DNA of 55,619 nt from an uncultured archaeon (lineage in GTDB: Archaea > Asgardarchaeota > Lokiarchaeia > Sigyniarchaeales > SOKP01). Shown in pieces: positions 1-1,759 of the stretch (within the stretch, counting starts at the first letter, position 1; the number at the start of each line of letters is the position of its first letter). The translations under genes and the position numbers were made by a program. The notes below the pieces were generated by a model. The model was not told where the DNA came from and did no database searches. It saw only the letters and a program-made list of their open reading frames with translations. Location: contig CAZWEM010000025.1 in the NCBI GenBank assembly GCA_964632315.1, positions 1 to 55,619 on the forward strand. Reading direction: 5' to 3'.

Positions 1-1759
1 AAGATCCAATAATAACCGTCTTCATCTCGTCTTGCGCCATCTCCCGTATAGTAATGCCCCGGATATCGATTTAGATAGGTTGATTTGAACCGCTCCGTGT
101 CACCCCAGACATCTCTTAGCATTCCTGGCCATGGATGCACTCAATTTTCTTACTGAAAACTCATTTGTGCCATTGCAAAATATCCCCCCACATTCTCTTC
201 TTCGATTACATCACCTTCTAAATCGAATATAACGGGTTTTATTCCCAGGAATGGTAAGCAGCAGGATCCCGGCTTTGTTGGAGTCGCCGTTGCGATTGGA
301 GTCATAATAAAGCCGCCCGTTTCTGTTAGCCAAATCTTTCTAAATGAACGATTTTTTTGCCAATAAGTATCGACAATGGGCGCTTTACCTTTTCCTATTT
401 TGTAAAAGTACCAAGTCCAGGCTTCGGGGTTTTTCCCGAATACGAATAAGTTTTTCGTATTTATCGGTTCCCCAACAGTGCCTAAGATTCGGATAGAGCT
501 AAGATCATGCTTATTAACTGGCTCTTCACCATAACGCATTAACGCTCTAATTGCAGTTGGAGCTGTATAAATTCCCATTTCAGGACGAATCATACTGAAA
601 TATTGAGTTACCTTGTGTCTTTCGACTATATCCCAAAAGCGGTCTACTTTTACCCCACTTGGAAGAGATTTCCAATTGAAATTACTTGTGACTGGGTATG
701 TAGGCACGCCTTCGTACATCAAGGTCGTAGCTCCATTCGCAAGAGGTCCATATACAATGTAGGAATGTCCGGTGATCCAGCCTATATTTCAGCTGGTATT
801 GGTGAAGTACCAATTCCATCTGCTGTACAATACCAGACATCGCCATCCTTGTAGTTAAAGACGACTTTATGGGTGTAGGACGTGTATAAGATGTATCCCG
901 CGGTGGTATGTTTGACCCCTTTTGGTTTTCCGGTGGTCCCGCTCGTATAGAGAATGAAGAGAGTATCTTCAGAGTCCATGTGCTCGGGTTCGCATTCCTC
1001 ACTCATTCCCTCAATGAAATCATGGTACCAGATGTCTTTATCAGTATGCGGTACGTCATTTCCACTATGCTTGACCACGATCACGTGTTCAATAGTGGGC
1101 ACGTCGTCGATGATTTGAACGACGTCAGCCATTTTCGGATAAAATTTCCCAGCACGTACCGTTTGATCGCTGGTGAACAGCAGTCGAGAGTCTGAATCTT
1201 CAATCCTGTCCTTGACGGCTTCTTTCGAGAATCCACCAAATACAATGGAGTGAATGACACCAATTCGGGCACACGCGAGCATGATAATGGCGAGTTCGGG
1301 AATCATTGGCAACCAGATGGTTACCCTATCACCTTTTTTCAAGCCCAGTTTTTTCATGCCGTTAGCAGCTTTAGAAACCTCTGCGAGTAGTTCCTTGTAA
1401 GTATATTTACGCACTTTACCAGGTTCATCAGCTTCCCAGATGAGAGCTGTATGGTCACCTTTTCCGTTTTTCACGTGTCGATCCAAGCAATTGTATGCTA
1501 CGTTGAGTTTACCGCCAACAAACCATTTTCCTGGAAACAGGTCGGTTTTTTCCCAGACTTTTTCGTAGGGCGTGAACCAATCGAGTGATTTCGCTTGTTC
1601 TCCCCAGAATCCTTCCATGTCTTCGATGGATTCCTTGTAAAGCTTTTGATATTCCTTGAACGACATTCCAGTTGCGGCGTAATCTGGGTTGAGGTCTCGT
1701 GGGTCGAACTTCCTTGTTTCGGTTAGGATGCTTTCCATTTTTGAGTCTTTTTCTGACAT
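1..1759 (-). CDS. acs: AMP-forming acetyl-CoA synthetase, split by six BHB introns; 3' end runs off the window. Exons: 1759-820, 787-692, 649-602, 571-463, 432-356, 325-165, 134-<1
   Basis: ORFs 782..1759 and 150..722 plus downstream sequence give ACS motifs [57 protein letters not shown] and [17 protein letters not shown] once six short inserts are removed. Exon lengths 940/96/48/109/77/161 keep the frame. Confidence 0.95.
135..164 (-). other. BHB intron 6 of acs (30 nt, contains in-frame TAA and TGA)
   Basis: GCAATG-GCAC-AA^A-TGAGTTTTC...GAAAATTGA-GTGC-AT^C-CATGGC: perfect GCAC/GTGC helix. Splicing gives AMAQPWPGML. Confidence 0.93.
326..355 (-). other. Relaxed BHB intron 5 of acs (30 nt, in frame, no stop)
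   Basis: TT-GGCA-AA^A-AAATC...GATTT-GGCT-AA^C-AG, with one A-G mismatch. Splicing restores DTYWQTETGG. Confidence 0.87.
433..462 (-). other. Relaxed BHB intron 4 of acs (30 nt, in frame, no stop)
   Basis: GGGGA-ACCG-AT^A-AATACGAA...TTCGTATT-CGGG-AA^A-AACCCC, with one A-G mismatch in the central helix. Splicing restores VGEPINPEAW. Confidence 0.87.
572..601 (-). other. BHB intron 3 of acs (30 nt, in frame, no stop)
   Basis: GTAA-CTCA-AT^A-TTTCAG...CTGAAA-TGGG-AA^T-TTAT. Splicing creates a TTT codon and restores KVTQFYTAPT. Confidence 0.92.
650..691 (-). other. BHB intron 2 of acs (42 nt, in frame, no stop)
   Basis: CTACAT-ACCC-AG^T-CAC...GTG-GGGT-AA^A-AGTAG. Splicing gives TYPEVDRFW, matching the spacing of typical YPDPDRFW. 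Confidence 0.87.
788..819 (-). other. BHB intron 1 of acs (32 nt, frameshifting)
   Basis: TTGTA-CAGC-AG^A-TGG...CCA-GCTG-AA^A-TATAG: perfect 4-bp helix CAGC/GCTG, two 3-nt bulges and flanking helices. Splicing gives GCA GAT ATA GGC TGG (ADIGW). Confidence 0.93.

Follow-up and report, generated by a model that had tools for sequence, protein, structure and literature searches.

An acetate--CoA ligase gene (acs) of an uncultured Lokiarchaeia archaeon (GCA_964632315.1, contig CAZWEM010000025.1; the window is the whole stretch of 55,619 nucleotides that was analysed) is interrupted by short inserts, four of which can be read straight through by a ribosome, which raises the question of whether these are peptide insertions of the enzyme or introns of its messenger. 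The gene starts at 1759 on the minus strand and is cut off by the contig end; its product is assigned to acetate--CoA ligase by NCBIfam, its nearest named homologues come from Promethearchaeota (Lokiarchaeota), and genomes of the same genus carry an intact acs frame of 662 amino acids with about 85% identity to the window gene. DNA alignment with an intact same-genus acs reveals six clean inserts of 32, 42, 30, 30, 30 and 30 nt (I1 to I6), whose boundaries we set by placement of the BHB motif (Table 1). I1 shifts the frame, which then meets a stop at 784-782; with all six inserts taken out, 521 stop-free codons remain, at 85% identity to the intact orthologue. Contig C79 of this genome (G000) carries the remaining, C-terminal part of the gene in intact form; its positions 1-120 overlap window positions 1-120 over 120 nt with 2 differences, and the assembly break within acs probably reflects strain variation. 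A search of the genome, which is 99.5% complete, gave no second Acs orthologue, the next match being 29% identical.

Table 1. Exons and BHB inserts of the window acs gene, database entries holding intron peptides, and BHB inserts elsewhere (window positions unless a contig is named).
Feature	Position	Strand	Basis or remark
acs exon 1	820..1759	-	Start codon ATG at 1759; AMP-binding core, ending at the Asp codon that I1 splits; 84% identity to intact orthologue
I1, 32-nt BHB intron	788..819	-	4/4 central helix; helix kept in 13 distinct homologues
Exon 2, 96 nt	692..787	-	Alignment to intact orthologue; RNA contig match with 0 differences, ending at both edges
I2, 42-nt in-frame stop-free BHB intron, 14 aa if read	650..691	-	4/4 Watson-Crick central helix; RNA joint 649 to 692
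Exon 3, 48 nt	602..649	-	Alignment; same as the 48-letter side of the RNA joint
I3, 30-nt in-frame stop-free BHB intron, 10 aa if read	572..601	-	4/4 central and 6/6 intron-helix pairs; 30 letters missing in RNA contig
Exon 4, 109 nt	463..571	-	Alignment to intact orthologue
I4, 30-nt in-frame stop-free relaxed BHB intron	433..462	-	A-G at outer central pair; fold z -3.2
Exon 5, 77 nt	356..432	-	Alignment to intact orthologue
I5, 30-nt in-frame stop-free relaxed BHB intron	326..355	-	A-G at inner central pair; within W414-Q415-T416-E417 motif
Exon 6, 161 nt	165..325	-	Alignment to intact orthologue
I6, 30-nt in-frame BHB intron, two stops	135..164	-	3'-most, disabling intron of this allele
Exon 7	1..134	-	Leaves contig; goes on intact in contig C79
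Artefactual read-through ORF, 189 aa, four translated introns	150..719	-	Identical to NCBI protein P0269
Database entries with intron peptides			P0016-18, P0136-45, P0148, P0150-52, P0155 and cluster members; ~45 in all
29-33 nt BHB inserts in G000	C6 ~101582, C12 ~88274, C24 ~24162, C9 ~35505, C47 ~22498		
29-33 nt BHB inserts in G000, continued	C11 ~40851 and ~40916, C4 ~136906, C10 ~46929		
In-frame BHB introns in G018	C11 ~167345, C17 ~23476 and ~377453, C19 ~22794		

The first-pass annotation had singled out 326-691 as a run of four in-frame, stop-free inserts, a span that coincides exactly with I2 to I5 and whose four peptides match those it quoted; its remark that ORF callers take them in as peptides is borne out by NCBI protein P0269 (ORF 719-150), which contains all four. 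We mapped the insert sites onto the protein by alignment to Salmonella Acs. I5 splits Q415 from T416 and adjoins W414, I4 falls directly after G387-E388-P389, and I3 abuts Y355-T359, the latter two motifs presumably having a role in nucleotide and CoA binding. The placement of the inserts inside active-site motifs therefore holds for I3, I4 and I5 and fails for I2, which lies in a less conserved loop near P337/T338. W414 of Acs is part of the substrate pocket (PMC6122825).

At the boundaries that restore the protein, all six inserts show BHB endonuclease geometry, in which the ends of the 5' exon and of the intron pair as a 4-bp helix, accompanied by two 3-nt bulges that begin with A and by a stacked intron hairpin; if each bulge is cut behind its second base, both the frame and the conserved residues are restored. 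All four central pairs form in I2 (pair probabilities 0.77-0.92) and I3, and three plus an A-G, the relaxed form, in I4 and I5, with 8 of 21 I5 homologues having the full four; the exon-side helix is weak in I2 and offset in I4. Across about 120 acs loci we found eight insertion sites, every one with BHB geometry, and the columns of the intron helices are paired in 81-100% of cases against 6-65% with slid partners, compensatory pair types included; in I4, all 11 distinct homologues keep every pair of the intron helix, and a single column can show as many as 4 pair types. When single sequences are folded, I4 (z of -3.2 against shuffles), I1 (-2.0) and I2 (-1.9) are convincing, and these three only, the folds of I3, I5 and I6 being no more stable than those of shuffled sequences (z of -0.2 to -0.6). 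The genome encodes two EndA genes (PF01974), one of which has the Tyr/His/Lys catalytic pattern as judged by eye, and one RtcB. Relaxed BHB motifs are processed by a splicing endonuclease of two subunits. Other intron classes were considered and rejected: the ends of I2 to I5 (TC..AA, AT..AA, AA..AA and AA..AA) lack the GT-AG (or AT-AC) of spliceosomal introns, and single hairpins of 30-42 nt fall far short of the hundreds of bases of a group I or group II ribozyme core.

Because all four inserts are in frame and free of stops, and because real insertions of 10-12 amino acids exist in the Acs of other Loki families, we weighed the possibility that I2 to I5 are genuine, translated, lineage-specific peptide insertions. 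Their pattern of change argues against it. Among close relatives, variable sites fall on codon positions 1, 2 and 3 in the numbers 17, 17 and 14 in the inserts as against 24, 12 and 93 in the exons (p 3e-7), and the ratio of synonymous to nonsynonymous codon changes is 5:37 in the inserts and 118:25 in the exons, which are under purifying selection. Among 12 near-conspecific database proteins, 21 of 44 residue columns vary in the inserts and 11 of 141 in the exons. Homologous inserts contain stops (12 of 21 distinct I5 sequences, at four codon positions and in separate parts of the tree, and 2 of 11 for I4), I5 interrupts the W414-E417 motif, the gene is broken by I1 and I6 in any case, and RNA without I2 and I3 exists (see below). 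A peptide that is not conserved, in which synonymous changes are not favoured and which is absent from full-length open frames leads us to reject this explanation, which we regard as extremely improbable even though the inner introns hold fewer stops than shuffles predict.

The opposite signature is seen in a genuine insertion of 10-12 amino acids near residue 303 in full-length Acs of other Loki families (L019-L028), which adjoins the I1 site: its peptide is conserved and it has no consistent BHB register. We also considered this 33-nt insert as a hidden intron and rejected it on these grounds, and it provides a useful negative control. Hidden introns can be separated from true peptide insertions by codon-position neutrality, stem covariation and A-led bulges in a fixed register. 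In the acs locus L346 (genome G066), I2 is present in a longer version of 60 nt that is likewise in frame and stop-free.

RNA contigs from two salt-marsh metatranscriptomes of different studies, in which a small share of the stretch is represented, bear directly on removal, although they are few and short, have a depth of 2-5 and come without matched DNA. Contigs from both studies contain the joint 649 to 692, which corresponds exactly to loss of I2, and one contig lacks the 30 letters at 572 that constitute I3; neither boundary can slide. A contig of 151 nt matches exon 2 with 0 differences in 96 and continues beyond the joint for exactly the 48 letters of exon 3, its match ending at the edges of I1 and I3 with further letters present, and from these alignment ends we infer the pattern expected if I1, I2 and I3 had all been removed. 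DNA loci with at most 5 differences from exon 2 all carry I1 to I3, and the known relatives that lack I2 differ from exon 2 at 9 or more of the 96 positions. Another contig lacks I3, ends at the I2 edge and matches I4 over 5 letters, against 3-4 for a spliced RNA, a weak hint of either a 5'-to-3' splicing intermediate or a strain with I4 only. Joints for I4, I5 and I6, where RNA coverage is absent or low, were not found among the contigs, which speaks neither for nor against removal of these three.

Since close relatives lose single introns (L362 is without I4, L367 without I2) and the RNA comes without a matched DNA run, an intronless, near-identical strain of the same species could be the source of the joints. 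Taken further, the window gene would be a pseudogene full of small hairpin insertions and the RNA would derive from intronless strains in the same sediment, and the very patchy presence of the introns, with intronless sisters to intron-rich alleles, is in keeping with such a scenario. We nevertheless consider it very unlikely: the balance of 118 synonymous to 25 nonsynonymous changes points to purifying selection on exons that show no lesion, the gene is the sole Acs orthologue found in a nearly complete genome, the stems covary over many lineages, and like inserts break the best-matching EF-2 in 22 genomes. Every insert is a compact hairpin within coding sequence and might in principle be bypassed by ribosomes hopping along an uncut mRNA, but the RNA contigs lack the inserts, and the feature that is conserved is the exon-intron BHB with its A-led bulges rather than matched take-off and landing codons, so that hopping has in our estimate hardly any chance of being correct. 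Given the restored frame, the covarying stems, the codon-position neutrality, the stops in I4 and I5 homologues and the RNA joints for I2 and I3, we conclude that the inserts are very probably real and intronic, as had been proposed for the four cryptic ones.

I2 to I5 would accordingly be four of six tRNA-type (BHB) introns in the acs pre-mRNA. By analogy with known archaeal tRNA and cbf5 splicing, EndA would cleave each bulge behind its second base, RtcB would ligate the exons, and the mature mRNA would encode an ordinary Acs of about 660 amino acids, the insert peptides being artefacts of annotation. Stop-free introns would be tolerated because they are never the sole interruption, the gene keeping a disabling intron that is nearly always the 3'-most.

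Each of the 28 distinct acs alleles with introns contains one or more that shift the frame or carry a stop, and the disabling intron is the 3'-most in 25 of the 26 alleles whose 3' end is covered (the exception is L176). Stops are present in 14 of 15 last in-frame introns and in 2 of 43 inner ones. I5 has a stop in 12 of 12 sequences where it is last and in 0 of 8 where I6 or I7 follows, and I6 in 2 of 2 where it is last versus 0 of 4 otherwise. The alleles are related and partly recombinant, so nominal p-values overstate the rule; counted from stop position and the tree, the stops of last introns would represent about six independent origins. In the window allele I6 is last and has two stops, so I2 to I5 can be cryptic.

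This pattern suggests 5'-to-3' splicing with a final checkpoint. If the introns were removed roughly from 5' to 3', incompletely spliced RNA would keep the last intron and yield a truncated protein without the C-terminal catalytic domain, an order of events whose chances we hold to be about even. We propose, more tentatively and at somewhat less than even chance, that in Loki-type Asgard archaea the tRNA-splicing enzymes process multi-intron mRNAs 5' to 3' under a checkpoint at the level of translation, such that selection maintains a stop or frameshift in the intron nearest the 3' end and leaves inner in-frame introns open for read-through. Full-length protein would then be made only once all introns are out, and the closest relatives of eukaryotes would have, in this checkpoint, a prokaryotic equivalent of eukaryotic intron spell-checking. 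A 5'-to-3' order leaves unexplained why I2, I2b and I3 contain stops in 0 of 23 cases, where shuffles predict 8.8-15.6. Ancestry and search bias account for part of this scarcity of stops in inner introns, and a benefit from ribosomes staying coupled to the transcript is possible.

The same scarcity could be taken to mean that I2 to I5, though real introns, frequently stay in the message by design, so that regulated alternative splicing yields full-length isoforms with the peptides, and the RNA contig without I2 and I3 that enters I4 by 5 letters rather than the 3-4 expected after splicing would agree with retention. That contig is equally compatible with a 5'-to-3' intermediate and with a strain that has I4 alone, the peptides show no constraint at the protein level, and none of the 28 alleles permits full-length read-through without splicing, the last intron being disabling in 25 of 26; regulated retention thus seems unlikely to us. 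Of the isoforms foreseen by the first-pass annotation, partial splicing finds a weak hint in this one RNA, whereas the last-intron rule predicts mostly truncated protein and not a full-length enzyme with inserts.

We then asked how far hidden introns reach beyond acs. We compared this genome with 2.7 Mb of a congener, about 1.45 Mb being aligned in each direction, and counted inserts: of 33 with a length of 25-45 nt, 19 fit a BHB, compared with 3.4-3.8 expected from shuffled or randomly placed controls, so that BHB folds are commoner than in controls; among inserts of 12-24 nt, 1 of 23 fits. By class, the fit in the 25-45 nt range is 10 of 11 for in-frame inserts with a stop, 6 of 11 for frameshifting and 3 of 11 for stop-free ones. 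The three stop-free inserts that fit all lie in acs (I4 was recovered under relaxed filters), and outside acs none of 8 stop-free in-frame inserts of 25-45 nt fits. With the relaxed census, 7 of 36 stop-free in-frame inserts scored as BHB, and the three beyond I2 to I5 were dismissed, being without A-led bulges and at the chance rate. A de novo BHB scan without an intronless reference was likewise set aside, as it gave 135 sense and 81 antisense hits between two genomes, the displayed matches being ordinary conserved peptides, and dozens of chance matches came from a loose scan restricted to acs. Such chance and antisense hits mean that the BHB fold by itself is not diagnostic, which limits the test of database insertions originally proposed.

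Database proteins do contain translated introns at these acs sites, in about 45 entries, some of them named acetyl-CoA synthetase, but every one is a fragment or a truncated protein, and the suspicion that some database insertions are unrecognised introns is upheld to that extent. No full-length Acs with an insert occurs among 120 longer matches. The wider concern that such peptides distort phylogenies in general found no support, since a stop-free insert is hidden in none of 97 full-span acs matches of the family and in none of 103 EF-2 genomes; hidden introns contaminate fragments, and distortion of full-length marker proteins is not shown. Hidden introns are rare in full-length proteins because the last intron nearly always carries a stop or frameshift. 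Split genes are the larger database problem, and for annotation the real risk lies in split or truncated genes, the marker EF-2 included, with intron peptides confined mainly to fragments. Two further candidates were discarded: P0264 and P0281, ORFs that start inside the intron region and might have reflected stop-bearing I2 or I3, contain no stops and are start-codon calls, and P0003/L364, which lacks introns, was left out as an apparent chimeric contig with a deletion.

Other genes are interrupted in a similar manner. In the window, a 30-nt in-frame BHB intron containing a TAA (29359-29388, minus strand) interrupts aEF-2 near residue 63, upstream of the ORF 27295-29184, and its removal restores the conserved GTPase motif. 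An EF-2 insert of 27-60 nt, with stops throughout, is found in 22 of 103 family genomes (only the window copy was examined as DNA), the inserts of the 22 may share ancestry, and the stop-free matches across the 103 genomes reach +9 nt at most. The two in-frame inserts of FwdB each contain a stop. Further BHB inserts of 29-33 nt, each with a frameshift or a stop, lie at conserved motifs of this genome's gyrB, uvrA and fwdB and of other genes identified from their motifs alone, GAPDH-like and topoisomerase VI B-like genes among them. The congener G018 has in-frame BHB introns of its own, all with stops, and one of these lies in a P-loop motif resembling that of EF-1-alpha. Towards the end of a small gene (26688-27233, plus strand), a frameshifting insert of 13 nt near 27212 is probably not an intron, as its BHB occurs equally in antisense and shuffled sequence.

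The acs introns are patchily distributed, with 14 changes for I5 on an unrooted tree of 92 rows and with intronless sisters to alleles that have five to seven introns. Such patchiness fits repeated precise loss, for example via spliced copies, or spread by recombination, and gain and loss are indistinguishable because the counts are unrooted. A search of this genome found no RVT_1 reverse transcriptase, and no enzyme for cDNA-mediated intron loss was identified. The allele L173 differs from the window at 6 of 144 positions in exons 2-3 and at 84 of 481 in exons 4-7, its I5 resembles that of L339, and it is a probable recombinant.

Watanabe and Yoshinari reportedly described, in 2002 and 2006, a BHB intron in the cbf5 pre-mRNA of Crenarchaeota. 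The cbf5 introns measure 16-44 nt, have BHB or relaxed BHB borders, sit at a key codon and show patchy gain and loss (PMC2738675), and the acs introns share with them the tiny size within coding sequence, the BHB borders, the key-codon site and the patchy presence. In-frame cbf5 introns of 33, 36 and 39 bp, which annotation ignored or misidentified, are on record (Yokobori 2009; PMC2738675), so the cryptic in-frame archaeal intron is not a new idea. The acs case differs from the single intron of the single gene cbf5 in its number of introns, with six in this mRNA, as many as seven in relatives and eight sites overall; it also concerns an Asgard metabolic enzyme, is accompanied by similar inserts in many further genes and shows a rule that links stops to intron position. 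An mRNA target of EndA is also shared by a BHB intron in the 5' UTR of Haloferax HVO_1309, a report that names cbf5 as the sole other mRNA case (Schwarz 2020; PMC7714728); that intron differs in being single and in an untranslated region, where no question of reading frame arises. In the literature we searched, which covered subscription journals thinly, we found no coding-sequence BHB introns beyond cbf5, in-frame cases included, and no report of introns in Asgard protein genes. With six introns in acs, both the order of splicing and its link to translation can be put to a direct test, and a six-intron metabolic mRNA whose RNA joints fall where cutting is predicted would show spliceosome-free processing of multi-intron mRNA in the lineage nearest to eukaryotes.

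In ciliates, the 3n-intron rule describes tiny in-frame introns that are enriched in stop codons (PMC5014332); these are spliceosomal introns whose stops feed nonsense-mediated decay (PMC5014332). Common to both systems are in-frame mini-introns of about 30 nt that are rich in stops when they are the sole or last interruption. Unlike in ciliates, the acs introns are of BHB type, the rule is limited to the 3'-most intron and inner introns are stop-poor, so that the acs pattern appears to work like the ciliate rule without being a member of it.

Asgard tRNA genes contain multiple non-canonical introns, gained repeatedly and missed by standard annotation, according to the parts of two papers available to us (PMC11291895; bioRxiv 10.64898/2026.10.13.758758). 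These introns share with acs the motif, the enzyme and the presence of several introns per gene; the same parts of the papers deal with tRNA genes only and report no introns in protein genes, and the preprint itself says of its newly found inserts that splicing has been demonstrated for none (bioRxiv 10.64898/2026.10.13.758758). Of the 30 tRNAs that ARAGORN predicts in G000, 19 are given introns; the lengths or anticodons of several are implausible, which suggests multi-intron tRNAs misread by the program.
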